From a virus: DNA of 64,000 nt. Both the position numbers and the translations under genes were made by a program. Location: the IMG/VR virus record IMGVR_UViG_3300032246_002821, positions 1 through 64,000 of that record; one strand, given 5' to 3'. The number at the start of each line of letters is the position of its first letter. The first letter of the stretch is position 1. The notes beneath the pieces were generated by a model, which had not been told where the DNA came from, ran no database searches, and worked only from the letters and a program-made list of their open reading frames with translations. Of this stretch, positions 9,865 to 60,344 are shown piece by piece.

Positions 9865-10739
9865 TTTTTACTTCCGCAGTATATCAAACATTCTTCTCTG
9901 ATCTGCCCTGTCTCTATTTCTTGTGCTATGTCTGCATCTGTTATCTGTAAATTTTTAATGAAACAACAGGTTATCAGCTGCCCTTTGAAATTGACGTACA
10001 CACTGGGCAAGTTCAGATGCATACAATTTTCTGGATGTAATGTGTTATTCTTATTGTCTTCTATATTACTGACTTTGCCTTTGTGGCGTCCGAACTTTTC
10101 TTCCAAGGACCATGGTTTAATTTCTATAGGTTCGCCGGTCTTGTGGTGCCGGGGCACATTACGATAGCGAACATTTTTTACCAGATAAAAGTTTTTAAAT
10201 CCCATCTGTTTGCTTATTTTGTAAGCATCTTTGATCTGATGTTCATTGTGAGCAAAGGGCAGGAATTGCCATTCAGCACAACCGCCTGCATCAATGAAGG
10301 CCTGGGCATTGTCTATTATTTTATGGAAGTTAGTATTCTGTCTATAGATGGCGTGTGTGTCTGCCAGCCCATCTATACCAAAAATAATCTTGTGTTGATG
10401 ATCTTTTAATTTCACACCCAATTGGCGCCACCAATTGGTGGTTTTTAAACTGCCATTTGTGTGTATCTGTATCATCAGGTTTTTGCCCAGGACCAGATCT
10501 ATGGTATCATCTATATTTTTACTGGCGATGCAATCTCCAAAATTGCCACAGAAAAACACATTGGTTAAATTGGGTAGTTGATTTAAAACTTCTGTTAGCC
10601 GTGGGATAGGTAAATCGGCTATCTGCAGACCAGGTATCACGCCATAACCGTCATTGTTCCTGGGGCAGGCTATGCAGCTGGCATTGCATCTGCTGGTTAA
10701 TTCTATGTGTAACCATTTGACCGTGGCTAGATTGATCAT
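9861..10739 (-). CDS. Radical SAM / SPASM-twitch protein
   Basis: ELTSRCNASCIACPRN (CxxxCxxC), CGNFGD, HTNG, GIDG; likely ATG 10739 overlaps the cyclase stop (ATGA). Confidence 0.85.
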   Translation of the reverse strand: MINLATVKWLHIELTSRCNASCIACPRNNDGYGVIPGLQIADLPIPRLTEVLNQLPNLTNVFFCGNFGDCIASKNIDDTIDLVLGKNLMIQIHTNGSLKTTNWWRQLGVKLKDHQHKIIFGIDGLADTHAIYRQNTNFHKIIDNAQAFIDAGGCAEWQFLPFAHNEHQIKDAYKISKQMGFKNFYLVKNVRYRNVPRHHKTGEPIEIKPWSLEEKFGRHKGKVSNIEDNKNNTLHPENCMHLNLPSVYVNFKGQLITCCFIKNLQITDADIAQEIETGQIREECLIYCGSKK

Positions 10740-12820
10740 TTTGTGTTTGTGCGGAATACTCCGTCCCAATCTGCGCCAGGTGGATTCTTTATATAATCGG
10801 CACAACGTTCGATCCACATCTCATAATAATGATCCATCTGACCATTAAATGCGCCTATTAGATCCCTACTCATATTCTTAGCGACCGTGAATCTTTGTGC
10901 CTTGTATGCTTTCATCATAGTCACATGATTGATCTTATCCTGATTCCAATTGGGTTTATCAGCACCTTCAGTGTTTAGTACCGTGAAGATGTCCACGCCT
11001 TCTTTCTTGCCCTTAACCGCCAAGCAGTCCAAGGGGAGCGTGAAGAAATCCGTTTTGACATATTCGTTAGTTAGAGGACCAATGACCATAGCCACGTGAT
11101 AAGGCTTAGACTGCCCTTCGAGACGGCTTGCGAGATTAACGCTATCGCCCAAGCAAGTGTAGTCAAAACGCTGCTCACTGCCCATATTACCAACAACGAC
11201 GACCCCGGTATTAATGCCCAGACCCATACCAAAAGGAGGAATACCTTCCGCAGTGACTTCGGCATTGAACGCAGCAAGGCTGTCCAACATTTCCAAGGCC
11301 GTTCTAACGGCGTTCTTCGCGTGTTCTTTATCATCCAGCGGAGCGTTCCAGAATGCCATCTGAGCATCACCGATGTACTTGTCCAGTGTTCCTTCATTGT
11401 CGATGATTTTCCTTGTCATTGCTGTCATGTAGCGGTTCATGATCTTAGTTAATCCTTGGACGTCTTTGCCATAATGCTCACTGATGGTAGTAAAGCCACG
11501 CACGTCAGTGAACATGATGCTTAGTTCTCTGCTGTCTCCTCCCAGCCTGAGCAGGTCTGGATTCTGTTGCAGTTTTTCCACCATCTTGGGACTCAGGTAA
11601 GTGCCAAACTGTTTCTTTATCTGTTGTTTTTGTCTAAATTCTCGAACAAAATTGTTAAAAACACATTGGAAAAATACAAGACTACCAGCGACCAGAAGAT
11701 AGCTGGCATCCAGGAGATAATTTCCATTATCGAATAGGCTAATGTGTACATATATGACCCCTCCTATTAATGTAGCGTACAGAGGTAATGTGGTTTTAAT
11801 ACCAGCACGTGGTACTATCAAGACGAGCAAAATGCTCAATAAAGCCAATGCTGCTAATTCTGCTAGATCTGCCCAGGCTGGGCGACTTATAGTTGTGCCG
11901 CTAATAAGAGTCTGTAATGCCTGCGCTTGCAGATCGTGTGGATAAATTTCGCCCCGGGGAGTGCCTATGATATTACCCAAACCCTCAGCAGTTAGTCCCA
12001 CTATCACTATCTTATCTGATAGATCCAAGGTGCTTTCACGAGTGATCACATCTATGGCTTCCACACGTTCGAATTTGGTGTTCTGGCTCAACCAGATGCG
12101 ACCATTGTTGTCTGTGTTTATGGTGGGAAACTGTGGTATGCGTACCGCTTCTATGCCAGCATCGCCAGTCTTGATCTGATAACTGGGATCTCCTGTGGCC
12201 ACACGGATTATCTCGAGCGGAAAGCTGGGATATAATTCTCCAGCCAGTCTGACTATCATGGGCATACGGCGTACAACACCATCTATTTCTGGTGTTGTGG
12301 CAACTACCCCCACACCGTCCGCGGCTTTGGCCAATTCAGGAATTGGACTGACCCCGCCGCGCCAGCTGAATGTCCAGGGTGCGGGATCTGCGCCTATCTT
12401 GGCCACACCACGGCGCACAGCATCTGGTTGTTGGCTTTTGATACTGACTGCTTGGCTAATCACTACACCTTGATCCAGCACACTTGCCAAGGGATCATCA
12501 CCACCCAATCTATCTGGTTCGGCGAACAGTATGTTCATAGCGATTACGCCGGCATTGGCCTGGCGCAATCTGCCCACCAATTCAGCAAACGCATCGCGAC
12601 GTGGCGGCCACTGGCCCCAACTTTTGAGGGTTTTTTCACCTATGTCTATCAATACAATATCTTTGCTGACCTGTTGTGGCTGACTGGTCATCAGGTAATC
12701 GAAATCTTTCAATCTAAGTGTTTTAACCAGGCTGGGATCTGCATATCGCACAAACAGCAATGCTAAGGCCAAGATGATCACAGCGCCAGTGCCAGTGATC
12801 CAGTTAATGTATTTTTCCAT
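10736..12820 (-). CDS. CHASE2-domain membrane class III adenylate cyclase
   Basis: N-terminal TM, CHASE2 (IDIGEKTLKSWGQWPPRR, EIDGVVRR), three TMs, IMFTDVRGFT, LDKYIGDAQMAFW, GINTG, FDYTCLGDSVNLASRLEG. Confidence 0.95.
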   Translation of the reverse strand: MEKYINWITGTGAVIILALALLFVRYADPSLVKTLRLKDFDYLMTSQPQQVSKDIVLIDIGEKTLKSWGQWPPRRDAFAELVGRLRQANAGVIAMNILFAEPDRLGGDDPLASVLDQGVVISQAVSIKSQQPDAVRRGVAKIGADPAPWTFSWRGGVSPIPELAKAADGVGVVATTPEIDGVVRRMPMIVRLAGELYPSFPLEIIRVATGDPSYQIKTGDAGIEAVRIPQFPTINTDNNGRIWLSQNTKFERVEAIDVITRESTLDLSDKIVIVGLTAEGLGNIIGTPRGEIYPHDLQAQALQTLISGTTISRPAWADLAELAALALLSILLVLIVPRAGIKTTLPLYATLIGGVIYVHISLFDNGNYLLDASYLLVAGSLVFFQCVFNNFVREFRQKQQIKKQFGTYLSPKMVEKLQQNPDLLRLGGDSRELSIMFTDVRGFTTISEHYGKDVQGLTKIMNRYMTAMTRKIIDNEGTLDKYIGDAQMAFWNAPLDDKEHAKNAVRTALEMLDSLAAFNAEVTAEGIPPFGMGLGINTGVVVVGNMGSEQRFDYTCLGDSVNLASRLEGQSKPYHVAMVIGPLTNEYVKTDFFTLPLDCLAVKGKKEGVDIFTVLNTEGADKPNWNQDKINHVTMMKAYKAQRFTVAKNMSRDLIGAFNGQMDHYYEMWIERCADYIKNPPGADWDGVFRTNTK

Positions 12821-30459: not shown

Positions 30460-30534
30460 TGGTGCCGGTAGAGAGAATCGAACTCCCAATCTACTGATTA
30501 CAAATCAGTTGCCTTACCATTGGGCCATACCGGC
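30460..30534 (-). tRNA. tRNA-Thr(UGU)
   Basis: GCCGGTA/TACCGGC acceptor with encoded ACCA, anticodon arm ACTGA-TTTGTAA-TCAGT, T-loop TTCGATT. Confidence 0.95.
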
Positions 30535-30947: not shown

Positions 30948-31724
30948 ATGCATTTTGATTTATTAAGCGATCTACACGAAAACTGGTGGCCAGTGGACCA
31001 ACGTATGGACTATGCTGGATTGGGCACCAGTCTGCTGGCGGTGGTTGCTGGTGACATCAGCCAGGACTGGAATTACACCTACGACTATCTGGCCATTATG
31101 GCTAGACATTACCGTCACGTGATATTCGTGGATGGTAACCACGAGCATAATGGAGCCAATAACATACAGGCCAACTGTGACCTGTTCTCGGCTCGTATAA
31201 AAAACCTGGACAATGTCACCTATCTGCACAAGAGCGCAATCGTTCTGGATGACACTGCTTTCATCGGCTGCAACGGTTGGTGGACTTATGACTTTTGCGA
31301 GCCCGAGATGAGCAAACAGGATTGTTGGTTACAACTGCTGTTACAGACCAATGACGAATACAAGATGTCTGAAAATCTACACGTGGCCAGGGAGGAGTAT
31401 CGTTACCTGGTACAGCAATTACAGATATTCGATGCGGATTTTCGCATCAATAACATCGTGATCGTGACCCATACTGCACCGCTCAAGAAGTTCCGTTACA
31501 TTCCTGCCAGTATGAGTGAGGCAAATATGGGCAGAGCAGGCAACAGTTTTATGGCCAATGCGCTAAGATACAACACCAACAAAAAGATCCGTGCCTGGTG
31601 CTTCGGCCACGTACACAAACAATGGGACGAAACCATAGACGGTATCCGATATGTTTGCAATCCCCGTGGCAGGCCAGGAGACGATCTCAGCCCTGTGTAT
31701 TACCCTAAACTGATCGAAGTTTAA
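30948..31724 (+). CDS. Calcineurin-like metallophosphoesterase
   Basis: SDLH, AGD, GNHEH, VTHTAP and FGHVH metal-binding motifs. Confidence 0.9.
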   Translation: MHFDLLSDLHENWWPVDQRMDYAGLGTSLLAVVAGDISQDWNYTYDYLAIMARHYRHVIFVDGNHEHNGANNIQANCDLFSARIKNLDNVTYLHKSAIVLDDTAFIGCNGWWTYDFCEPEMSKQDCWLQLLLQTNDEYKMSENLHVAREEYRYLVQQLQIFDADFRINNIVIVTHTAPLKKFRYIPASMSEANMGRAGNSFMANALRYNTNKKIRAWCFGHVHKQWDETIDGIRYVCNPRGRPGDDLSPVYYPKLIEV

Positions 31725-32047
31725 CCTTCGGGTTCCAGTTTGACATTCAGTGGAAAGTTGTTGTTTCTAGCCAGCAGTGTCACTTCCACTGCCTTGCTTT
31801 CTGCGATCTCGAAAGGCAACAAAGCCACGCTGGCTTGCCCTTGTTCGTGGATCTTCATGGTGAGATCGGCTGCCGATTCTGGCGTGTGTTCGAACAGTTC
31901 CATCAGTACAGCGATGACAAAATCCATGCTTGTGACATTGTCATTGAGGAAAACCACGTTGTACCTAGGTGGTGGAACGATGTCCAACTTGGCTGCGATC
32001 TTATGTTTGGTCTTGGTAGCAGTGTCTGTGCTCATCTTATCCATCAC
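31721..32047 (-). CDS. clpS: ATP-dependent Clp protease adaptor ClpS
   Basis: PPRYNVVFLNDNVTSMDFVIAVL...IHEQGQA...AESKA...FPL. Confidence 0.92.
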   Translation of the reverse strand: MMDKMSTDTATKTKHKIAAKLDIVPPPRYNVVFLNDNVTSMDFVIAVLMELFEHTPESAADLTMKIHEQGQASVALLPFEIAESKAVEVTLLARNNNFPLNVKLEPEG

Positions 32048-32099: not shown

Positions 32100-32528
32100 T
32101 TAATTGATATATGCAATAGATATTTTTTGTGGTTTGTCTTCTTCAGGAATATGCTGTTCCAATTCGATAGTAAGCATACCATTCTTTACTGTGGCACTCT
32201 TTACTTCCACGTTGTCGGCCAGTTGCCAGCTGCGTTCGAACTTGCGGGTGGCGATGCCACGGTACAGGAAATTGCTTTCACTGGGTGTCTTGATCTCACC
32301 TGTGACAGTCAGCAATCCCTTGTGCAAGGTCACATCCAGATCTTCCTGTGTGAAGCCGGCCACTGCCACTTCTATACTGAAGATGTTTTCTTCGTTCTGG
32401 ATGATGTTGTAGGGAGGATAACCTGTGCTGTTTGTTACACTGGTAGTGGTGTGTAGGCGATTAAAGATGTCATCGAAACCTACGCTAACTCTGTGGAAGT
32501 CGTGAAGTTGCTGTAATAGATTAGTCAT
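32100..32528 (-). CDS. ibpA: Small heat-shock protein (Hsp20/IbpA family)
   Basis: VGFDDIF, GYPPYNI, IEVAVAGF, FLYRGIATRKFERSWQLAD, NGMLTIEL. Confidence 0.93.
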   Translation of the reverse strand: MTNLLQQLHDFHRVSVGFDDIFNRLHTTTSVTNSTGYPPYNIIQNEENIFSIEVAVAGFTQEDLDVTLHKGLLTVTGEIKTPSESNFLYRGIATRKFERSWQLADNVEVKSATVKNGMLTIELEQHIPEEDKPQKISIAYIN

Positions 32529-32607: not shown

Positions 32608-32850
32608 TTAAAGTGCAATACCTGCCGTACGCATTTCTTTTAATTTTTTCTGCCAACGCTTCTGGGCACGTGCTTTGGCCTTCTTGCGCTTCTGGCTGGG
32701 TGTCTCGAAACGCTCGCGTTCGCGCAACGTCTGGAAGATACCATCGGATTGGATCTGTTTCTTCAATTTACGCAGGGCTTTGTTGACGTCGTTGTTGTGG
32801 ACTTCCACGAACAGGCCCTTCTGTTTTAGATCGGTTACTTCAAAGCTCAT
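32608..32850 (-). CDS. rpsU: Ribosomal protein bS21
   Basis: VEVHNNDVNKALRKLKK...RERFETPSQKRKKAKARAQKRW; likely start MSFEV at 32850. Confidence 0.9.
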   Translation of the reverse strand: MSFEVTDLKQKGLFVEVHNNDVNKALRKLKKQIQSDGIFQTLRERERFETPSQKRKKAKARAQKRWQKKLKEMRTAGIAL

Positions 32851-33238
32851 TTTTTCCCTCTTGGTGCTTCTGGTAATTAGCATATCTTTCGGCCAGCCAA
32901 GAATAAAGATCGAATGTCTGTCTGTGCGTGGCTTTGCCTATGGCATTGTCTCCCCAGGCCCACACATTATCTTGTGCCAGCAGATAGCCTTTCAGTATTT
33001 CTTTATTGCCCTGAAAGCGGCAATTTATCAAGCAGGCAGTGGCGTGTTTGGCTGCATTGATGCACCAGACATCGTCGGTCTCTTTGCTGCCATACAAGAA
33101 AACGGTCACGGGTTCAGGCATGGTTTTCACTATCTGACTGAAACGTTCCACATCCGACCATTCGCAATCCACTAGTAATATCTTGAAACGATTGCTCAGG
33201 TCCATATCAGGTACGGTTACTATCCTGCTTTCATCCAT
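32840..33238 (-). CDS. Hypothetical protein
   Basis: 132-aa coupled ORF. Confidence 0.55.
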   Translation of the reverse strand: MDESRIVTVPDMDLSNRFKILLVDCEWSDVERFSQIVKTMPEPVTVFLYGSKETDDVWCINAAKHATACLINCRFQGNKEILKGYLLAQDNVWAWGDNAIGKATHRQTFDLYSWLAERYANYQKHQEGKNEL

Positions 33239-37611: not shown

Positions 37612-37960
37612 AATAGCCGTTGTGCTCGTTGTGGTTTACCAGTGTGATGAAACCTGAGTCAGTCTGGATTTCCAAGAACTGTGTGTCGTGTACATCATAA
37701 CCATTTTCGTCGCTCACATCAGGACCGTCCTTGACTTCGTAGCACATGAATCTGCTACCAATCAGCTGTCGCACATCATCGTCTGTGCTCATGTAACGAT
37801 TTTCGCAGCAGCACTGACCGTTGTCACGCAATGTCAACTTGCCAAAGTCAAACTTCAAGGTGATGCTGTCTTCATCTACCTCTGCATCACGGATGATCAT
37901 ACCTTTAAGCTGCATTTTCCAAAACCTGTCTGATATGTTTGCAGTCCCGGCGGAAGCCAT
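37568..37960 (-). CDS. Conserved hypothetical phage protein
   Basis: DNGQCCCENRY...HNEHNGYYGGF. Confidence 0.65.
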   Translation of the reverse strand: MASAGTANISDRFWKMQLKGMIIRDAEVDEDSITLKFDFGKLTLRDNGQCCCENRYMSTDDDVRQLIGSRFMCYEVKDGPDVSDENGYDVHDTQFLEIQTDSGFITLVNHNEHNGYYGGFSIEEVWYADR

Positions 37961-38270
37961 AACCTGGGCAAGTGCAGGAGCGTTGTTTGCCGTCTATGGT
38001 CACACTGTAGGTGCTGCCTTTGCTGCCTGTGACGATGTGTACACGCTGGCTCACGGCAATGGGTGGCACGGTGTAATCTTCACTGCACTCTTCGATCCAT
38101 TCCGCTGGAATGATGTGCAGGCCCTTGTGGTCCACAATGCACACTGCACCAGGCTCAGCCCACTTGGGAGCAGGCACACGCTCTCCGCGGTACTCATGAA
38201 ACTCACGCACCACCCCACGAGCATATAGATGACGCTTGGGCCACTTGGGATCACGAACCTTGACGTACAT
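37905..38270 (-). CDS. SWIM zinc-finger protein
   Basis: VTGSKGSTYSV...SCTCPGYGFRRDCKHI; AAGGAG SD before ATG 38270. Confidence 0.8.
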   Translation of the reverse strand: MYVKVRDPKWPKRHLYARGVVREFHEYRGERVPAPKWAEPGAVCIVDHKGLHIIPAEWIEECSEDYTVPPIAVSQRVHIVTGSKGSTYSVTIDGKQRSCTCPGYGFRRDCKHIRQVLENAA

Positions 38271-38391
38271 CTGTATGCTCCTTGTTAACTCGTTTGCGGT
38301 TGTAGCTGCCAGCACCCTTGCGAGCAACGACGATGCGCTGGCGATACTTGCGATCCGCCAATGCTTTTGCCTGTATGCTACGCTGTTTCAT
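38251..38391 (-). CDS. arfA: ArfA-like alternative ribosome-rescue factor (46 aa)
   Basis: Not in the ORF track. GGAG SD; MKQRSIQAKALADRKYRQRIVVARKGAGSYNRKRVNKEHTDVRQGS* matches the ArfA signature AL-x-D-x-x-F/Y-RQR...KG-x-GSY-x-RK. Confidence 0.72.
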   Translation of the reverse strand: MKQRSIQAKALADRKYRQRIVVARKGAGSYNRKRVNKEHTDVRQGS

Positions 38392-38417
38392 CACTCGCTC
38401 CTGGGCTCTATATATTC

Positions 38418-38445
38418 AATATAGCACACAAAGACCATCTGTCAA
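38418..38445 (-). promoter_or_regulatory. Sigma70-type early promoter (arfA-like gene)
   Basis: TTGACA-N16-TATATT with TGC before the -10. Confidence 0.75.
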
Positions 38446-38460
38446 CCACAAAAAGAAAGA

Positions 38461-38486
38461 TCTCCCGCAGATCAATCTGCGGGAGA
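38461..38486. terminator. Intrinsic terminator
   Basis: TCTCCCGCAGA-TCAA-TCTGCGGGAGA, followed on the minus strand by a T-rich run. Confidence 0.75.
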
Positions 38487-38505
38487 CCACAATCATCAAG
38501 CTGTA

Positions 38506-38784
38506 TCAAGCAGCCTGTTCGACCTTCTGGGCAACTGCTTCAGCAGTGACCTGGGCCCGGGTATTCTGCGACAAGAACTTCTCGCGCATCGTGGCCTGCT
38601 TGGTTGCATTACCGATGTAAACTGCGGCATCTTGCTTGGTCATTGGCTGCGGCAACACCTGGATGTCGATGTCAGTCTTGCCTTCACGAGCCAAGATCTT
38701 GGCATAATCGGCGCGGTTGGTGGCGCGGAAAACAACAGAACCATCGGTTTCACGAGCAGTACCAGCGTATGTAAAAGTCTTCAT
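38506..38784 (-). CDS. Small early hypothetical protein
   Basis: MKTFTYAGTAR...FRATNRADYAKILAREGKTDI; own promoter at 38838-38865. Confidence 0.7.
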   Translation of the reverse strand: MKTFTYAGTARETDGSVVFRATNRADYAKILAREGKTDIDIQVLPQPMTKQDAAVYIGNATKQATMREKFLSQNTRAQVTAEAVAQKVEQAA

Positions 38785-38837
38785 TGTAGATCTCCGTAGA
38801 GTTGAGGGTTAAAAGTTCAAGTCCAAATTACATTATC

Positions 38838-38865
38838 ATATTAACACGGTCTAAGACCGTGTCAA
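38838..38865 (-). promoter_or_regulatory. Sigma70-type early promoter with a palindromic spacer
   Basis: TTGACA-N16-TAATAT; ACACGGTC-TAA-GACCGTGT at 38844-38862. Confidence 0.75.
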
Positions 38866-38874
38866 CACTTTTTT

Positions 38875-39252
38875 TCAGTCCAAACGGCTGGCGGCATAAG
38901 CCTTGAAGCCGTATTTCTTCAGCACTGCGGCAGCAGCCACAGCACCAGCTTCCTTGCAGTCGATGCTCTGTCCGGGCCACTTGGCTGGGTCCCAGATCTG
39001 ATAAGCAGGACCACCAAAGCCAGGCCTAAAACCCATCTCCTTGAGCTGGGCCCGTTCAGCCTTGCCCAATTTGGTATTGCCCTTGTTTGCTGGGTAAACT
39101 TCCACCCAGGCAAAGCCACATGCACCACCATCACGACCTTCATAACGCTCGTCTGCCCGTTGTTTGGCAGCGTATTGAGCGGCAATGGTCATTTCAGTAA
39201 CAACAGCTTGCGTATTCAACATGTGCATCTCCATCATCAACTTATAACTCAA
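38875..39252 (-). CDS. Conserved early hypothetical protein
   Basis: GGACGFAWVEV...QSIDCKEAGAVAAAAVLKKYGFKAYAASRLD; promoter at 39251-39278. Confidence 0.7.
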   Translation of the reverse strand: MSYKLMMEMHMLNTQAVVTEMTIAAQYAAKQRADERYEGRDGGACGFAWVEVYPANKGNTKLGKAERAQLKEMGFRPGFGGPAYQIWDPAKWPGQSIDCKEAGAVAAAAVLKKYGFKAYAASRLD

Positions 39253-39274
39253 TATAACACGGCTTTATCAGGTG

Positions 39275-39409
39275 TCAACCATTAATTTGCTGAACGGTGC
39301 ATTTATTTCCAGTAACTTCTTCGTAGAACATCACTTCTTCCATCAGGTTACCCAGATCAGCGTTGCGGCAAATTTCACGACCATTGTGGTTGTATGCTAC
39401 CCAAATCAT
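39275..39409 (-). CDS. Small early hypothetical protein (44 aa)
   Basis: AAGGAG SD; MIWVAYNHNGREICRNADL...; promoter TTGACA-N16-TATATT at 39440-39467. Confidence 0.6.
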   Translation of the reverse strand: MIWVAYNHNGREICRNADLGNLMEEVMFYEEVTGNKCTVQQING

Positions 39410-39547
39410 AGTGTGCTCCTTTGCTTCAACTTATACCCCAATATAGCACGTGATCTGATGGTGTCAACCACTATTTTCCAGAAAAATTCTCCAATGATTT
39501 CAAGGCAGAAAAATCCCCTGTATCAGTTAAAATACAGGGGAAATTTA

Positions 39548-42500
39548 TCAGAAGCGCCAGTCTAGACCTATCATACCAGTTGTGTTGGTATAGTGGTTGC
39601 CTCTTGCATAACTGATGCTGGCATTCACGCTGATGTCATCAGTCAGCTTCTCCTTGACAGTGGCTTTGATACTCTTGACATTACCAAAGTCCTTGGTCTG
39701 TGTGCTACGAGCTTCAACAGCAACATTGTCGTTGAACTCATATCTCAAACCTACATAGGGATTGGCTTGGATAGTGGTCTTGGCTGCTGGTGCAGTTGCT
39801 AACAGAGCATTACTGTCCCAGGCATTTGACACACTGCTGCGGACAACTGTTACACCAGCCAGTGGACGGAATCCCCACAGTGTATCAGCTGCATAAACAG
39901 TTAGATCACCATAAGTGTTGGTCTGTGCTGCTTTGCTTACACCACCGAAACCTATGTCTTGTAGACTGGTCTGTGTGGTGTAAACACCCTTGCTCATGCC
40001 CAATGTGCCTTTGATCCAAACATAGTCTTGCTTGGATAGAAGATAGATAGCACCAGCATAGGTGTCGCCGCTTGTGCGAGTGTTGACAAATCCAGCACTC
40101 TCACTGTTGCTAGCACGGAAAGCAAAACCAGTAGTGTTGTTCTCCGCAGTCTGTTGCCAGCCACCTGAAAAATTCTTGCTGTTCATGCGACCAGTTGTAG
40201 TAGTACGATCAAAGCTGGGAGTGATCCAAGCACCGTCTTTTGTGCTGAGAGCATCAACGATGAACGGATTGGTTCTGTTGGCTTTCATCACATCTGACAT
40301 AGCACCCACATTGGCTGTACGTGTAGTAACATATGGATTAGCCACTACCTGTGTACCAGTCACAGTGTTGGTTGATACTTGGTTACTGATAGTAGTCGTG
40401 CTAGCCACACTATTACTTGTACTAGTTGACTGTGTAGTTGAACCATTGCTAGTGACAGTTGACCCATCGCTGTAGGTTGTTACAGTAGTAGGGGTAGTAT
40501 CAGTTACAGTTGTCACTGGAGTAGTATTTGTAACAACGGTAGTTATTGGAGTAGTTGTAGTGATCACTGTGCTGAACGGTGTGCTGGTTGTTATAGTAAC
40601 AGTTCTAGTTACTACTAGATTGCTGCCCTGTCGCTGTCCAGCAAATGCTGATCCTGTAGTGATGGTTGGTGTCCCAGTTGTGATATTAGCAACCTGCACA
40701 GGAGTACCTGGTGTGCTGGTAGTGGTTGTAACTGTTGTACCATTTGTTGATGTTGTTGTTACAACTGGATTACCTGGAGCAGTTCCTGTTATATAAACAC
40801 TTGGTCTCCATTCGACACTTACTAGATTATTGTTCTGTGTAAGTGTCCAGTTCACACCAGCTACTGTACCGCTTGTTGTGACAAACGCACCAGTGATACT
40901 GCCGCTGGCATTGATCACATTCACATAAGGACTGTTCAGTACTACATTAGTCGATGTGTTACCCACTATCTGTGGAGTATATGTGGCATTTGTTCCCAAT
41001 GTCAACATACCATTTACAGTCAATTGACCATAAGCAACACCATTGAACCAAGTAGTGATATTGCCATTGCTGGTCATATCACCGTTTACCACAGTGTTAG
41101 CACCCGCACCAATCGCAAGTGTTCCATTGTTAGTAACAGTTACGGCATTGATACCAACGCCCAGGTTGTCAGTTAATGTGCTGCCTGTGTTGATGTTCAC
41201 TGCCGATAATGGTTGGAAAGTAAACGCTCTTGGGAAGTTGCCATATGTGCCTGAGGGTGCACCTGTGTTAGCAGGATCGCCTAAGTTGCCAGCAAGTGTA
41301 GTTGTTGCTGTGGTAGCATTAGTTCCAATGTTTACCACTGCGGTGCTGTCAGTTGTGCGAACTGCACCAGCAACTGAACCAGTTCCTAGTTGATTAAGCA
41401 CACCATTAGTTGATAACTGGACATCACCAGTGATAGTTCCGGCATTGTTGATAATCGCTCCAGTGTTTGTACCTAGATTGATTATGGCTATACCGCTGTT
41501 GCCAGTGATAGTGCCTGTAGCATTATTGTTGATAGTGCTGCCTGCTGTGGTGTTGATAAAGTCTACACCAACATCGCCAGTGATGCTGCCATTGTTATTA
41601 ATCGTAGCATTATTGCCCATAAGTACTGCTGGCATACTATTAGTGCCAGTTGGTGTGCTAGTGATGCTACCGTCGTTGTTTAGTACTGTATTACCATATC
41701 CCATCATAACAACACCGTCGCCATTAGTAACTGCGATAGTACCAGTTGCTGTGTTATTAACTGTCGCTGTGCCTGTGCTGCCGGTGCCATTGAAACTAGT
41801 TACGATGCCGTGTGCTGAATAGCCATTGCCCAGCAGTGTGTTACCGCTAGTGTTAGCAGTGATATCGCCGCTGTTTGTCACTGTGATGTTGCTAGTAGTA
41901 TTAGTACCCTGCTGAGCATTGATGCCAGTGCCGTTGTCTGTAGTGATAGTTCCAGCATTAGTGATAGTGGTTGTGCCAGCATTTGTACTATTGATACCAT
42001 TGCTGTTAGCACCTGTGACGTTAATCGTACCGTTGTTTGTGATGGTACCATCTGTAGGCTGTCCTAATGTAAAGGTAGTAGTTGTACCTGTGGGATTAGT
42101 GCTGGTTGTAGCAGCAGGAGCACCGTTGGGATTGTTTGTGCTCATTGTGCTGTTATAACCACCAGCAGTTCCGCTAGTTGTACCACCAGTTGCACTTGGT
42201 CCGCCACCGTTCTGGTTGGCTACCAGACCTACTGTGCTCTGTCCTGGTGTACCGCTGCTGTTGACGATACAGGCATTGCTACCGCCCCAAGCACCCTGAC
42301 AAGCACCAAAGCCTGGGCTGCTTGTCCAACCCTGTGCCGTGATGCCATTGTAAGGACCAAACTCTGGATTGTACAGCCTGTTGTTGCCAGCACCGTTCAC
42401 TGTCAGTGTGGGCGCACGATACCAAGGACCGTAATCTCCTGCCCAATATGAACCGTCGATACCATACATGCTGACCTTGGCATAGGCCACCGTCGCTGCC

Positions 42501-42901
42501 TGTGCTTGAGTCAATGTCTTGCTGATGGCCAGTGTGGTCCAGGGCACAGCGGGATCGATCTGCGGATTGCCGCCCAGTGCATTAGGGTTAGGCAAGTTGT
42601 TGCTGAAGCTGGTGTTAGCACTGGTAACCAGTGCATTACCACTGGTGAAGAACTCGATCTTTACGTTAGCAGTGTCTGATTGTCCTGCACGGCCGCCACC
42701 GTTATGTGCCAGGACACTAAAGTCGAAAGTACCACCCTGTTGCATAGTGCTGTCGAACACCACGAACTGGCTGATGGTAGTAGTCACATAAGCTGTGGCT
42801 ATACTGTTGTAAACTTGCTGTGCTGATGCTTCTCCGGCTACAAATAAGCCAGCAATCAAAGCACAGGCTTTGATTAGATTCTTAATCACAATTCTCTCCA
42901 A
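39548..42901 (-). CDS. Autotransporter-like outer-membrane adhesin
   Basis: Signal peptide (ASA/QQ; likely GTG 42889), Gly/Asn/Thr beta-helix passenger, Thr-rich stalk, amphipathic C-terminal barrel ending GLDWRF. Confidence 0.75.
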   Translation of the reverse strand: MERIVIKNLIKACALIAGLFVAGEASAQQVYNSIATAYVTTTISQFVVFDSTMQQGGTFDFSVLAHNGGGRAGQSDTANVKIEFFTSGNALVTSANTSFSNNLPNPNALGGNPQIDPAVPWTTLAISKTLTQAQAATVAYAKVSMYGIDGSYWAGDYGPWYRAPTLTVNGAGNNRLYNPEFGPYNGITAQGWTSSPGFGACQGAWGGSNACIVNSSGTPGQSTVGLVANQNGGGPSATGGTTSGTAGGYNSTMSTNNPNGAPAATTSTNPTGTTTTFTLGQPTDGTITNNGTINVTGANSNGINSTNAGTTTITNAGTITTDNGTGINAQQGTNTTSNITVTNSGDITANTSGNTLLGNGYSAHGIVTSFNGTGSTGTATVNNTATGTIAVTNGDGVVMMGYGNTVLNNDGSITSTPTGTNSMPAVLMGNNATINNNGSITGDVGVDFINTTAGSTINNNATGTITGNSGIAIINLGTNTGAIINNAGTITGDVQLSTNGVLNQLGTGSVAGAVRTTDSTAVVNIGTNATTATTTLAGNLGDPANTGAPSGTYGNFPRAFTFQPLSAVNINTGSTLTDNLGVGINAVTVTNNGTLAIGAGANTVVNGDMTSNGNITTWFNGVAYGQLTVNGMLTLGTNATYTPQIVGNTSTNVVLNSPYVNVINASGSITGAFVTTSGTVAGVNWTLTQNNNLVSVEWRPSVYITGTAPGNPVVTTTSTNGTTVTTTTSTPGTPVQVANITTGTPTITTGSAFAGQRQGSNLVVTRTVTITTSTPFSTVITTTTPITTVVTNTTPVTTVTDTTPTTVTTYSDGSTVTSNGSTTQSTSTSNSVASTTTISNQVSTNTVTGTQVVANPYVTTRTANVGAMSDVMKANRTNPFIVDALSTKDGAWITPSFDRTTTTGRMNSKNFSGGWQQTAENNTTGFAFRASNSESAGFVNTRTSGDTYAGAIYLLSKQDYVWIKGTLGMSKGVYTTQTSLQDIGFGGVSKAAQTNTYGDLTVYAADTLWGFRPLAGVTVVRSSVSNAWDSNALLATAPAAKTTIQANPYVGLRYEFNDNVAVEARSTQTKDFGNVKSIKATVKEKLTDDISVNASISYARGNHYTNTTGMIGLDWRF

Positions 42902-43005
42902 AATAATTGATTTTGTCGAGTTTTTCTTTTACTTTAGATTGAATCGTTGATTAAAAATGAATGTTGTTGAGTGCCTGACATATTTATCAGGCACCGCAAC
43001 ATCTT

Positions 43006-43395
43006 TTATGCTACTTTAAGGTCTGAACCCACTTCAGCGTAGCTTTTACGGGCTTTCTTGCCTGCTACCTCAATCTTGTCTGACTCGATCTTGTGATTGA
43101 GTTCGTCGATTCTGCTAAGACTGTTTTCCACTTTAGCATCAGCTTCTGCAACTGCCAACTTTTGTTCAGCGATCTTTAGATCACGACGACGAAGTTCCAC
43201 GTCATATACAGCACGTTCCAGATTGCGGCTGTGTTCTATATCTTCCATGCTAACTGGCAGATCACTGACCATGTCGTTACGCATTTCCTTTTTAATATAC
43301 CAGGCATAAATCTTTAGTATAAAGTACCAGACAGTGCTGGTGGCAATGACAGCTAGTGTAAAACTTGCGCCGTCTATTTTATTGATGATATCCAT
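43006..43395 (-). CDS. Membrane-anchored coiled-coil protein
   Basis: N-terminal TM followed by a coiled coil. Confidence 0.6.
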   Translation of the reverse strand: MDIINKIDGASFTLAVIATSTVWYFILKIYAWYIKKEMRNDMVSDLPVSMEDIEHSRNLERAVYDVELRRRDLKIAEQKLAVAEADAKVENSLSRIDELNHKIESDKIEVAGKKARKSYAEVGSDLKVA

Positions 43396-43431
43396 ATTTG
43401 ATCTCCACTTGGATCAATTATATAGCTGTGA

Positions 43432-43896
43432 TTATATGCGCCTATAAAAATAATGGCCGCCTATCTGCGCCGTTTTTACCAGTCTGGGATCGCGAAACGG
43501 ACGATTGTTGAAAAATTCAGCACTGTTGCTGACATCAGTATGAAAGCCCAGCATAACTAGTTCTGCACTGGCCAAACTGCGCTCATATTGCTCTTGGCGT
43601 GTGATTATCAGGGTTTTATCGCAGGCGAATGTGAATTGACAACGGCCCTGCCAGCGTTGGTACACAACATTGCAGATGGTATTGCCATAACGACCGCTGT
43701 TAACCCTGTTCATAATAACTTTGCCCACAGCAATGCGGCCAATATCCGATTCATTACCTGCTTCAAAATATATGGCTGTGGCCATACATTGCAGTTGTTT
43801 TGCATCGGGTTTGGGCGCGGTCCAACTAAACCATTCTGCCTGTGCTGTGTTTAAGCCGATGATTAAGGTTATCACAGCAATGTAAAATCTAATCAT
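43432..43896 (-). CDS. SleB-like cell wall hydrolase
   Basis: AIYFEAGNE, AVGKVIMNRV, ICNVVYQ, CQFTF, IGGHYFY; AAGGAGG SD before ATG 43896. Confidence 0.88.
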   Translation of the reverse strand: MIRFYIAVITLIIGLNTAQAEWFSWTAPKPDAKQLQCMATAIYFEAGNESDIGRIAVGKVIMNRVNSGRYGNTICNVVYQRWQGRCQFTFACDKTLIITRQEQYERSLASAELVMLGFHTDVSNSAEFFNNRPFRDPRLVKTAQIGGHYFYRRI

Positions 43897-44029
43897 ATTA
43901 CCTCCTTTGGTATTCCGCAGACAGTTGTCCTGGGAATATATAGGGTCAGCGATTAATGGAAAATCTAGCAAGTTAGGCGCACAAGGCCGAGTGTGCTGAC
44001 ACTGTTGTTCAGACTGTTGTGTCACGAGG

Positions 44030-44410
44030 CTGTCTGATGTAGCCCTACCTGGTAGACCAGGAATTGTTTTAACTGCGTATCAGCCGCTTACGCAAGCTGG
44101 TTGTACTGGTATTTAGTGGCCCGTTCTGTTGCCGGGTGGAGCCATACCCCTGGTGGTTACGCTGCTAGAGCGAACTCCTGAGTAGCAAAGTTATCGTTTG
44201 CATTTGTCATTTTGCTTTCTGTCTCAGCTGGTCTTTATCACACCTGTCGATCCTATTTCGCCCCCATCAAAGATACACTGACTCGAAACAGTGCCGGCCA
44301 GTCACCTATCAGTTAGTGGTGTGCTATCCAGTGTATCTATGGTGGAGGCGCCGGAGTACTGCCCTCCGGGTCCAGTGAGTTTATTCCACTTCGCCTCAAC
44401 GACATAAGCA
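44030..44410 (-). ncRNA. ssrA: Circularly permuted (two-piece) tmRNA, tag ANDNFATQEFALAA
   Basis: Acceptor piece ends CCGGAG-GGCAGTA-CTCCGG-CGCCTCC-ACCA at 44340; intervening hairpin 44266-44339; coding piece starts GGGGGCGAAATAGGATCGAC at 44265 (G3-U70 pair); tag at 44201-44157. Outer ends approximate. Confidence 0.93.
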
Positions 44411-44440
44411 TATTATTTATAGCATTAAATGTGTAGTATG

Positions 44441-47400
44441 TCAACTATTTCTGGGCGATACATCAAATTGACCGTCGGGCCCTGAACCGCCCCAACCAGT
44501 TGTTTCGTTTCTGTCCATTCCAGTTTTCATTGTTTTGAGTATGGCCTGGAATTGGTTACGTATCTTGTCCAGCAAAGGAGCCAACACCTGGCTTCCCAAC
44601 AATGTGGTGCCCAATGCATCCACATTGGATGGTGTCACTTGGCTGAGCATCTCCAACATACCATATACCATCTGATCTGTCAGGAAGGGATTATCATATT
44701 TGGTTGTACCGATGCTGCCGTATAGGATTTTATTACACAGGCTCAGCATCGTGCCCACGAACATCTCATTATTGGTCAGTAATAACCCTTTTTCGTCTAT
44801 GGTGGCAAACAGGTTCTGGCTACGGTTCAGTCCCACCACATAGCACTTGTTACCGATGACCAGTGTATTACGGCCTACAACTTGGCTCAACACATCCATA
44901 CCTATGGTTTTCTTTACCTGCTCGCTGGTGTTGGCCCATTGTATGTCGTAATATGCTTCGTCGGCCTGTGCAGGCAACATATGAGCAGGATCGTTTCCGC
45001 TGTTGATCAATGCTGTATTTCTCAACTGTATATAGATGTCATCTGGATTTTGTGGTGCAGGAGGATCCAACAACACATCAGGCACTATGGGCATTTCGCC
45101 ATTGTAAACAGTCTGGGCGAAACCATAGGGATCATTGTAATATTTGCTCCTGGGCAGATCGAATCGACCTGTGTCTATACCCAGCTCTGTCAATAATTCT
45201 TTGTTTTTACCCTGACGCATAGCTGCTTTTATGCTGTCTCCCCAGATGTCATCGGTGGCAACTCGTTCGAGGAAATGTCCCATTTCTCCATAACCCATAT
45301 TCATTCCGTGATAGGGCAGCTGGCTTGCGAACACGAATGCGTTGGTGGGGTTCTGATCCAGTCCATCTGTGTTGAAATGATCTATACCGAAAGTCTTGCT
45401 CATATGGTTTTCTTTAAGCAACTGAGCACAACTGGCCAAATGCGCTGCTTCGCTGGCAGCAAGCAGTTTTTTCAATGTGGGATCAGTCGTGTTTTTTATC
45501 ACAGTCAGCTGTGCTTCCACATAAGGGATGAAATCTGTAAGACAAGCGTCCAGACTGGTATAAACTATACCATCATAAGGGGTGGTGCCGAAATCGTGGA
45601 TCACTGGCAGACCAGTTGCACCCAGCGGCACTGCATTGCCATCAGCATCTGTGACATTGCTCAGATATTGAGTGCTGGTGCTGGTATCTCCAGTGATGGG
45701 ATTGGTTATAGTTTTGGTTGGCAGTGTACCTGTCAAACCTCCTGTCAAACTGTTGCTGACATCCGCTGCGTTCACCACTTTTGTCAGTTTATTAGTGGGA
45801 GCACCAGCCCAGGGCACACTCACTTTAGGTGTGATAACGATAGTGTCCACATTAGTGCTGCCAGCTGGAGGTGTGCCTCCACCTGATACACTTGTTCCGT
45901 CAGGAGCAGGTACATTATAGAGACCGTTTATTATGTTGTGCATGATATTCAATCTGCGTTGAAGTTCCTGCCCATCAGTGGTGGCCATCACCGCATCATT
46001 GGCCGCGATGATATGTGGCAGAGTGTCGTTATGCACATAACCAGCACAAGTACCCATGAAATCTGCCATAGTTATTTCGCCTATGGTACCGCCACCGAAA
46101 CCATATGTGCTCTGTATCTCGTCTACGGCAGGCTGATAGTATGGCGTGCTCATCTGGCTCACGTGGTTCAGATCCAGGCCAGGATCCACTTTGCTCAACA
46201 CCATACCCACCTGTTGGAAATTTTCAGCTCTGGTGATGCCCAGGCTCATGAAGTGTTCGCCCAGTTCTTTGAAGTTATTGTGCGGACTGCTCTGGCTCAT
46301 ATTGGGCATCATGGTCTTGTAATCTGTCAGCTGTCCCAGATGTGTAACAGGTGTGCTCACATTGAAATGGCTGCTGACACTAGCCACTGCTGTGGGATCG
46401 CTGATCTGTGTCAGCACATTCTGCACACTCTTGTCGTACCTGGGATCATCCACGCCTGCCAGAGGCACACCAGCTGTGACCAATTTGGTAGTGAGACCTG
46501 TCTTGGTTCCCAGACCAGCATTGAGTATCTGATTGGCCACGTTGCCAGGTTGCATAAGCCTGGTGGGATTACTGGTGCTGAATGTGCCCATATTCAGCAT
46601 ATCAGTGCTGGCGCCAGCAAGATTCCTGGTTAGACTGGTCACTCCATAACTTAGCACATCATTCATATTGCGGAAATTGGCCCCCAACGCACCAGGACCT
46701 TGGGTACCGAATTTTGCCGCACTGGCTTCACTAGCTGCGCCCACCATCTGATTGGCTATGCCGCTATAAGCGTTGGATACGCCCAGATTGTTCATCATTG
46801 CATTGAGGCCGCCGCCCACTGCACCCCCCACCATATTATTGGCCACGTTCTTGATCATACCCTGGAGTCCACCATTGGCCGCGAACTGCTGCATCACGTT
46901 GGGCAGATTCATGGGATTTTGCATTATTGCATTGAGGGGCGCCATCAGTTGTCCCAGTGCTCCATTGATAGCACCATTTGCGATGCCAGCCAGCTGTGGT
47001 GGCAACACTCCTGTGAGGCTGGGTAGTATGCTACCGCCCAGTTGGCTTATCTGTTGCATTATGGGGCCAGTGATGCTGCTCATAGCACTGCCCAATGCTC
47101 CCTGAGCGAATCCACCCAGGCCCTGCCCGCTCATTATGCCGCTGATGCCGCCCTGCAAGGCACCCTTCATCATATCGCCAGCCACACCTGTGATCCCAGC
47201 TGCTCCCAGCGCATTGGTCAACTGGCTGGTCAGTCCATTGGTTGCCATTCCCAGTGCGTTCTGTAATCCAGCTGCGCTCATGAGACTGGCGGGATTCATC
47301 CCGCTGCTGGCACAGCCAGCACCTCCCGCGCCTGGTGCGCCGGGCATACCAGGAGGACCTCCTGCTGCACCAGCAGGTGGTTTGGCATTGGGATCTATGT

Positions 47401-59956: not shown

Positions 59957-59963
59957 CTGGTAT

Positions 59964-60344
59964 TTATAGGCTGGCAGCTTTGCTAGCCATCTGGTCCACA
60001 GTGTTGGCCTGGGCCTCAGGATTGGGTTGGCCCTGTAACATCTGTTCGTCTTGTCCTATAGTGATGCTGTTCTGATTATAATCGGTCACAAGATTCTGGA
60101 TGTGATTGTTGTCGCGATATAATGCTTGGAAGTCGTCGTAATTGAAACTGTAGCCCATATTGCTCATCATCTTTGCAATGCTGCTGATGGGAACAGCAGT
60201 ACCTGGTTTGGTTTTGGCCTTCAGGTACTGCAATATGGTCATTAAGATTCCGGCTTGGCTACTGACAAAATCCGGGGCGACTTCCAAAAGTTTCATATCA
60301 AACTCGCTTGCCGCGACCCAGTTGTTCACTACCACCAGTTGCAC
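59964..60344 (-). CDS. Hypothetical late protein
   Basis: Likely start MKLLEVAPD; helical. Confidence 0.55.
   Translation of the reverse strand: MQLVVVNNWVAASEFDMKLLEVAPDFVSSQAGILMTILQYLKAKTKPGTAVPISSIAKMMSNMGYSFNYDDFQALYRDNNHIQNLVTDYNQNSITIGQDEQMLQGQPNPEAQANTVDQMASKAASL

Follow-up and report, generated by a model that had tools for sequence, protein, structure and literature searches.

A Short ArfA-Like Protein and a Two-Piece tmRNA in an Uncultured T4-Like Aquatic Phage: Candidate Members of Two Ribosome-Rescue Routes

Ribosome rescue is essential in bacteria; three routes to it are known, and ArfA, which acts in one of them, has been described as being under tight control by transfer-messenger RNA (tmRNA). 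In Escherichia coli, cleavage by ribonuclease (RNase) III at a hairpin leaves a non-stop mRNA, and this is the template for ArfA (PMC8012679). Residues 2-25 of the protein fold into a minidomain, where a patch consisting of L19, L24, and F25 binds W319 of RF2; the folding of this minidomain is coupled to the opening of RF2, and the substitution A18T blocks activation (PMC5378476). A 2021 review confines ArfA to some of the beta- and gammaproteobacteria. In cultured phages, tmRNA and ArfA are known singly: two-piece tmRNAs have been published for phage Melnitz and for 17 of 47 related contigs (PMC9004378), and an ArfA gene of the Pfam family PF03889, transcribed both early and late, for pelagiphage HTVC027P (gp30; PMC12753301). 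Here we analyze a 64-kb window (the whole stretch of DNA under study, i.e., the first 64 kb of the IMG/VR record IMGVR_UViG_3300032246_002821) that contains an arfA-like gene and, 5.7 kb away, the gene of a two-piece tmRNA.

The sequence supports the view that two alternative routes of ribosome rescue each have a member in this phage. Our preferred interpretation, to which we give a probability of about 0.6, is that they are two independent host-derived auxiliaries, which would raise the capacity of the infected cell to free ribosomes stalled on stop-less mRNAs. The record is linear, has 182,953 bp with a GC content of 46%, and is about 54% complete by the CheckV estimate. The source phage is an uncultured large aquatic T4-like phage. 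Among the proteins tested, the best conserved is a CHASE2-type cyclase (10736-12820), with 44% identity to its counterpart in Methylophilales phage Melnitz and 42% to that of Pelagibacter phage HTVC008M, both T4-like marine myophages of the Kyanoviridae. The arfA-like gene, which we call mini-ArfA, stands among the following elements.

37905-38270, minus strand: SWIM zinc-finger gene (PF04434, E = 3.5e-5), whose start overlaps the 3′ end of arfA by 20 nucleotides.
38219-38280, minus strand: imperfect hairpin of 17 base pairs (16-18 across relatives), with arfA codons 38-43 and the Shine-Dalgarno sequence and AUG of the SWIM gene in its 5′ arm and the arfA stop codon in its loop.
38251-38391, minus strand: arfA-like gene (mini-ArfA), 46 codons from ATG (coding 38254-38391) plus TGA (stop 38251-38253).
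38418-38445, minus strand: sigma70-type promoter of arfA, TTGACA-N16-(TGc)TATATT, scoring 11/12 with the TG extension.
38459-38488, minus strand: intrinsic terminator closing the upstream transcription unit, a 13-base-pair stem with eight GC pairs followed by a T run.

The original prediction, made from the sequence alone, was of a 46-residue open reading frame (ORF) with the ArfA signature behind a TTGACA/TATATT promoter, and both parts of it are borne out. The promoter is present at 38445-38418 with N16 spacing, and the protein matches the PF03889 hidden Markov model with E = 4.8e-6, at 26.4 bits when read as 47 residues and 27.2 bits when read as 46, the curated gathering cut-off being 25.5 bits. 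A six-frame search finds no other such site in the 183-kb record (E = 3.3e-6; the six-frame fragment alone scores 24.9 bits). Relatives include 12 close metagenomic homologues and 27 viral contigs. All 22 aligned family members match PF03889 (best E = 5.6e-8), and the positions A8, L11, K15, R19, K25, G26, G28, S29, Y30, and R32 are invariant among them; these correspond to A18, L20, R28, K34, G35, G37, S38, Y39, and R41 of E. coli ArfA. When the family profile is compared with the PDB, the only chains below E = 0.001 are those of ArfA (E = 4e-4 to 9e-4). A gap-free alignment joins the phage protein to residues 12-42 of E. coli ArfA as seen in ribosome structures; the basic C-terminal segment of the phage protein, RKGAGSYNRKR, falls on K34-R41, the KGKGSYxRK stretch that marks membership in the family. 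The pN/pS ratio is 0.09-0.27 relative to three relatives, with pS reaching 0.52. The order ArfA-SWIM-DUF7448 is conserved in relatives, with bS21, Hsp70, Hsp20, and ClpS further along, and within the subfamily of the window phage the SWIM gene is the invariable downstream neighbor. Hence, given the purifying selection and the conserved synteny, mini-ArfA is a real protein-coding gene.

In a scan of species-representative genomes, the closest cellular relatives of this protein are found in Pelagibacteraceae (SAR11), and not among the classic ArfA proteins of beta- and gammaproteobacteria, which have 66-72 residues. The chromosomal SAR11 homologues (L040-L065; G006-G110) have 38-44 residues, an equally short N-terminus, and a stop codon of their own. 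A match occurs in 66 of the 101 sampled Pelagibacteraceae genomes and exceeds the PF03889 cut-off in 50 of them. The one copy whose surroundings were examined is above the cut-off and is flanked by dapB and by genes for a pfkB kinase, a response regulator, and a DNA glycosylase. Because the same short form is chromosomal in so many SAR11 genomes, cells maintain a stripped-down ArfA; no description of a SAR11 ArfA was found in the literature searched. Searched with the family profile, 1.84 billion cluster representatives yield 193 clusters at E ≤ 0.001, and 103 of the best 149 among these are of at most 55 residues. We suggest tentatively, and at somewhat less than even odds, that mini-ArfA is a distinct, constitutive class of RF2-dependent rescue factor that is native to SAR11-type Alphaproteobacteria, works without the minidomain, and has been repeatedly captured by their phages, so that myophages with the pair would carry two of the three rescue routes. 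This minimal ArfA is conserved in SAR11, which are among the most abundant bacteria of the ocean, and in many aquatic phages, and as a natural minimal form it offers a test of what RF2 activation truly requires.

In roseophage CRP-212, a weak tblastn match to the phage protein lies inside a large annotated coding sequence and might be taken for spurious, but it marks a separate, unannotated ArfA-like frame of 41 residues (L008:3001-3123, MZ892988.1 ~39085-39207). This frame scores 29.8 bits against PF03889; it overlaps, in a different reading frame, the 3′ end of the annotated coding sequence of gp38 (1204 residues).

The arfA promoter is conserved in a relative (L010); the 183-kb record has 11 near-consensus sigma70 sites, this one included. 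Between this promoter and arfA lies an AGGAG ribosome-binding site, in a leader that has 27 nucleotides in the subfamily of the window phage. Three TTGACA-N16-TGnTATATT promoters stand within 1.1 kb (38418-39467, minus strand), each before a small ORF, and we take them as a putative tandem array of early transcription units. An early assignment for arfA is therefore reasonable, given a near-consensus promoter and three such sites in close succession. No intrinsic terminator occurs inside arfA, either here or in a subfamily of lower GC content. In the latter (L011-L036, e.g., L011:4130-4172), the promoter is TTGACA-N17-TATATT and arfA begins 6 nucleotides later (TATATTAATAAT-ATG) with no Shine-Dalgarno sequence, so that its mRNA should be leaderless.

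The second element is a complete permuted two-piece tmRNA of the alpha type (~44115-44404, minus strand). It matches the full Rfam model alpha_tmRNA (RF01849; 44115-44448, minus strand) with 135.5 bits and E = 7.9e-37, for a gathering score of 50, and the full model tmRNA_permuted (RF04321) with 95.2 bits, for a gathering score of 47; a run of ARAGORN on the window missed it. A complete tmRNA had been claimed, and the score and the readable hallmarks uphold this, the two-piece permuted form being absent from the claim. The parts of the gene and its immediate surroundings are as follows.

43432-44025, minus strand: cell-wall hydrolase gene, endolysin-like (PF07486, E = 1.1e-19), directly downstream of the tmRNA.
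44115-44265, minus strand: tmRNA coding piece, with 5′ GGGGGCG, the tag ORF (44201-44157), and the conserved 3′ domain.
44266-44339, minus strand: intervening segment of 74 nucleotides, removed on maturation, with a perfect closing stem of 10 base pairs (AGATACACTG/CAGTGTATCT).
44340-44404, minus strand: tmRNA acceptor piece, with the T-arm, the 3′ strand CGCCUCC, discriminator A, and an encoded CCA (44342-44340), invariant in relatives.
44414-44444, minus strand: compound tmRNA promoter, TTGACA (44444-44439)-N17-TGc-TATAAATA (44421-44414).

The gene thus has the permuted order, with the acceptor piece first, then a removable spacer, and then the coding piece. The pairing of GGGGGCG with CGCCUCC includes the alanine identity pair G3:U70, and the tag ORF (minus strand) encodes ANDNFATQEFALAA followed by TAA, with a hydrophobic degron end. 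In an alignment of four phage tmRNAs, the tRNA-like and 3′ domains are invariant, whereas the spacer differs among them and has largely been lost in contig G001. The tag of G001 is ANDNFVAQDYALAA, which departs from ANDNFATQEFALAA by several synonymous and conservative changes, and the tags of relatives end in ..ALAA, ..LAA, or ..AVAA. In contig L003 (3844-4278), an insertion lengthens the tag frame to about 32 codons with a ..DIAVAA end, and the tRNA-like domain is unchanged. A BLAST comparison with 400 sampled Alphaproteobacteria gives no close source for the tmRNA, as universal tRNA-like segments alone match (at most 63 bits); the tags of SAR11 tmRNAs have nine residues. The order tmRNA, hydrolase, and a protein of 129 residues is identical in L003. 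From this layout the endolysin-like gene is probably co-transcribed with the tmRNA, and may share its late transcript. No glutamine riboswitch of the kind found in Melnitz is matched here by Rfam.

The full promoter of the tmRNA reads TTGACA-N17-TGcTATAAATA, and the T4 late motif TATAAATA is itself the -10 part of this sigma70-type site. TTGAC and TATAAAT are invariant and at a fixed spacing in the four phage tmRNA genes, and the spacer between them varies. The arrangement TTGACA-N17-TATAAATA is also that of the Melnitz tmRNA promoter, which its authors called early (PMC9004378). The sole other compound site in the 183 kb (141421-141450, TTGACA-N16-TGTATAAATA) is about 300 nucleotides upstream of a cluster (141756-150962) that groups 22 of the 24 tRNA genes of the record. 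The 183 kb contain nine TATAAATA sites, each oriented toward a gene downstream on its own strand. Seven lie at 5-39 nucleotides from the start of an ORF, and the remaining two precede the tmRNA and the tRNA cluster; hence, the motif is probably functional. At three sites (59961-59968, 68238-68245, and 134000-134007) the distance to the predicted start is 5-9 nucleotides, which would make for leaderless late mRNAs if these are late promoters; the ORF starts are crude, and distances of 5-9 nucleotides may be wrong for this reason. Because the tmRNA promoter combines a sigma70 site with a late motif, one would predict expression of the tmRNA both early and late, and not late only. A conserved compound promoter on stable-RNA genes would be the way in which T4-like marine phages supply tRNAs and tmRNA throughout infection, a rule that can be tested.

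These results bear on the staging that had been proposed, with ArfA early, tmRNA late, and both in one staged rescue system. The late motif is present where it had been reported (44421-44414), and what does not stand is the late-only interpretation, since the motif sits within a sigma70-type promoter. The contrast between an early ArfA and a late tmRNA falls with it, the compound promoter being shared with Melnitz and with the tRNA cluster. The single system fares no better: the 5.7 kb between the two genes is occupied by a secreted repeat protein of 1117 residues, small ORFs, and lysis genes, and complete cultured relatives have a single element each, the tmRNA in Melnitz and HTVC008M and ArfA in HTVC034P and CRP-212. 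Both elements are found in five uncultured phage contigs, i.e., the window record (G000), the 80-kb contig behind L003, G001, G003 (whose ArfA is only 70% identical), and G008:C12 (with an ArfA of 37 residues, a permuted tmRNA with tag ANDNHAYGRVALAA, and a tRNA array), and never together in the cultured relatives checked. Since complete cultured genomes split them, there is no obligatory pairing, and ArfA and tmRNA are, on this distribution, apparently accessories that are inherited separately and come together repeatedly in some lineages. No paper noting both elements in one phage was found in the literature searched. The existence of a lineage with both hints that infection is limited by stalled ribosomes where hosts grow slowly and have few ribosomes.

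G008 is an 8.8-Mb species-representative metagenome-assembled genome labeled Cellvibrionaceae, which includes the T4-like phage contigs C10 and C12, the former with a gp23 capsid gene and an alpha-type tmRNA. The presence of phage contigs in this genome looks like binning contamination.

The biochemical steps of rescue, their timing, and the reason for carrying the pair we infer as follows. A mini-ArfA of the SAR11 type would be transcribed by the host sigma70 RNA polymerase from its consensus early promoter and translated from an ordinary, stop-containing mRNA. The basic tail of the protein (KGxGSYxRK) would probe the empty mRNA channel, and its core would recruit host RF2, leading to hydrolysis of the peptidyl-tRNA. 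E. coli ArfA is governed by a tmRNA-dependent shut-off, from which the phage protein should be exempt because it ends at a stop codon of its own and lacks the hydrophobic tail. The tmRNA would be transcribed from the compound sigma70-plus-late promoter, probably throughout infection, and its precursor cut by host RNases into the acceptor and coding pieces. It would then be charged by the host alanyl-tRNA synthetase (through G3:U70) and delivered by host SmpB and EF-Tu, the tag ANDNFATQEFALAA directing the stalled product to Clp-type proteolysis. The non-stop complexes that make rescue worthwhile may arise from mRNA decay during takeover or from defense nucleases. If the interpretation of mini-ArfA is true, phages with the pair would keep a ribosome-poor host translating during mRNA destruction.

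Several observations weigh against this interpretation, beginning with the split of the pair among complete cultured relatives. The PF03889 score of mini-ArfA is barely above the cut-off, and the match covers just positions 18-41 of the 44 in the profile. Most of the N-terminal minidomain is lacking, as only seven residues precede A8 and the fold-back segment (T7, K8, and I11 in E. coli) is absent, and K15 of the phage protein replaces L24 of the hydrophobic patch. For these two reasons, activation of RF2 by mini-ArfA is not assured. The hairpin whose loop holds the arfA stop codon is conserved, so an unregulated ArfA is not certain. Finally, the 183-kb record, at about 54% completeness, contains neither smpB (PF01668) nor a gene with an RF-1 domain; the original prediction had noted that no smpB is visible in the window and that host SmpB would be needed, and the empty search of the whole record agrees with it. 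The phage would also depend on the RF2, alanyl-tRNA synthetase, and processing RNases of its host.

The alternative that survives best is that mini-ArfA binds the vacant mRNA channel and does not activate RF2, thus being a sensor, a blocker, or a competitor that, for example, keeps host trans-translation or other factors off ribosomes or recruits a different partner. Largely absent is the minidomain by which ArfA folding and RF2 opening are coupled (PMC5378476), the part retained corresponds to the portion of ArfA ordered in the inactive "Structure I" complex, and the lysine that replaces L24 of the RF2-binding patch is invariant. Yet the equivalents of A18, L20, and F25 are kept in the phage protein (A8, L11, and Y16) and are invariant or nearly so, which would be unexpected if only the tail mattered. 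Moreover, most of the SAR11 genomes sampled have the same short form as a conserved chromosomal gene, and for these cells a pure inhibitor would come at a cost. The predicted complex of the mini-ArfA alignment with E. coli RF2 (median ipSAE 0.29, for a mark of 0.32) is no evidence either way. On balance we regard this alternative as unlikely, and retain rescue through RF2 as the probable function.

An E. coli-style regulatory circuit seems less probable still. In this scheme, RNase III or a similar enzyme would cut the hairpin at 38219-38280 upstream of the arfA stop codon and leave a non-stop mRNA, so that ArfA would accumulate only when trans-translation, including that by the phage tmRNA, is saturated. 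E. coli arfA does use such a hairpin (PMC8012679), and here the 16-18-base-pair structure with the arfA stop codon in its loop occurs in 10 of 10 relatives, where 89% of cells are paired as compared to 21-48% in slid controls. However, both arms are coding, and in these 10 relatives there is no covariation: the one double-sided change is equalled by 51 of 500 shuffles, and synonymous changes in the 3′ arm break pairs and go uncompensated. This lack of covariation is what places the circuit low. The fold of the whole region has a z-score of only -1.6, the hairpin is absent in the low-GC subfamily (stop and start overlap there as ATGCGTAA), and cleavage would destroy expression of the SWIM gene, whose Shine-Dalgarno sequence and AUG lie in the stem. 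Since the 5′ arm contains these two signals, translational coupling of arfA and the SWIM gene explains the layout more simply, and is the role that we favor from the sequence. The stem is not a terminator, as no T run follows it.

As improbable is a tmRNA mainly for something other than ribosome recycling (the tagging for amino-acid recycling that Buchholz et al. propose as an alternative role [PMC9004378], or the processed 5′ leader of a late lysis transcript, with the co-occurrence of ArfA being coincidental), which fits its position directly upstream of the endolysin-like gene in the window phage and in L003 and the cultured relatives that have tmRNA and lack ArfA, but not the retention of the tRNA-like domain, G3:U70, CCA, and the ALAA end of the tag alongside a synonymous tag change, which points to selection on the full trans-translation function, nor the fact that recycling and tagging are inseparable in that reaction.

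Other translation- and proteostasis-related genes of the window had been named as companions of the pair, and all are confirmed.

30460-30534, minus strand: tRNA-Thr (UGU).
31721-32047, minus strand: ClpS adaptor homologue (PF02617, 88.6 bits).
32100-32528, minus strand: Hsp20 small heat-shock protein (PF00011, 70.8 bits).
32608-32883, minus strand: bS21 ribosomal protein homologue (PF01165, 62.5 bits).

A functional link of the pair to ClpS, Hsp20, and bS21 is speculation, as is a role in counter-defense. The protein of 1117 residues between arfA and the tmRNA (39548-42901, minus strand) has a signal peptide, long repeats rich in Thr, Asn, and Gly, and a C-terminus of the outer-membrane type (...GLDWRF), and is in this autotransporter-like; it has no match in Pfam or PHROG. 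A megablast of the region against the GenBank phages gives zero matches. Within the 183-kb record (about 54% of the phage), the gp23 capsid gene is not found, and tblastn gives no match to the gp33-like coactivator, gp59, PhoH, and ThyX of Melnitz.

Among classic proteins, the nearest comparison is E. coli ArfA (YhdL; PF03889; PDB 5MGP, 5U4I, 5MDV, 5H5U, and 7OJ0). The two share the core L-x-D-x-x-[FY]-R-Q-R-[VI]-x4-K-G-x-G-S-Y-x-R-K, which aligns without gaps to E. coli residues 20-42, as well as the invariant equivalent of A18 and a basic tail, which in E. coli fills the mRNA channel (PMC5378476). The end of the phage protein corresponds to E. coli residue 55 (46 + 9), the end of the active truncated E. 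coli product. In contrast, about 10 residues of the N-terminal minidomain are missing in the phage protein, L24 is replaced by lysine and P23 by arginine, and synthesis would not be from a non-stop mRNA, as the gene has its own stop (TGA); the hydrophobic C-terminal tail is also lacking. Unlike E. coli arfA, the phage gene has no RNase III hairpin with covariation support. The resemblance to the SAR11 mini-ArfA is closer in form: 7-12 residues before the conserved alanine, an own stop codon, and no tail. The SAR11 proteins score 28-29 bits against PF03889 and have 49-54% identity to the phage protein; they stop about eight residues past GSYxRK, whereas the phage protein has 13 more residues, and they have P or K at the phage VVA. 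Their genomic context is one of housekeeping genes.

Among phages, HTVC027P gp30 and the ORFs of HTVC034P and roseophage CRP-212 are, like the protein of the window, phage-borne PF03889 mini-proteins. These three are small podophages without tmRNA (tmRNA having been checked for HTVC034P and CRP-212), and their ArfA proteins resemble that of the window weakly (tblastn E = 0.2-0.3). For the tmRNA, the closest described genes are the ssrA of Melnitz and of pelagimyophages (PMC9004378), which are also permuted and of the alpha type, occur in related Kyanoviridae-like myophages, and share the dependence on host SmpB. The neighbors differ, being lysis genes in the window phage and the late-transcription coactivator in Melnitz. 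With the two-piece tmRNA of Caulobacter (RF01849), the phage molecule shares the permuted order, the sequence of the tRNA-like domain, and a tag of the ANDNFA..A[LV]AA type.

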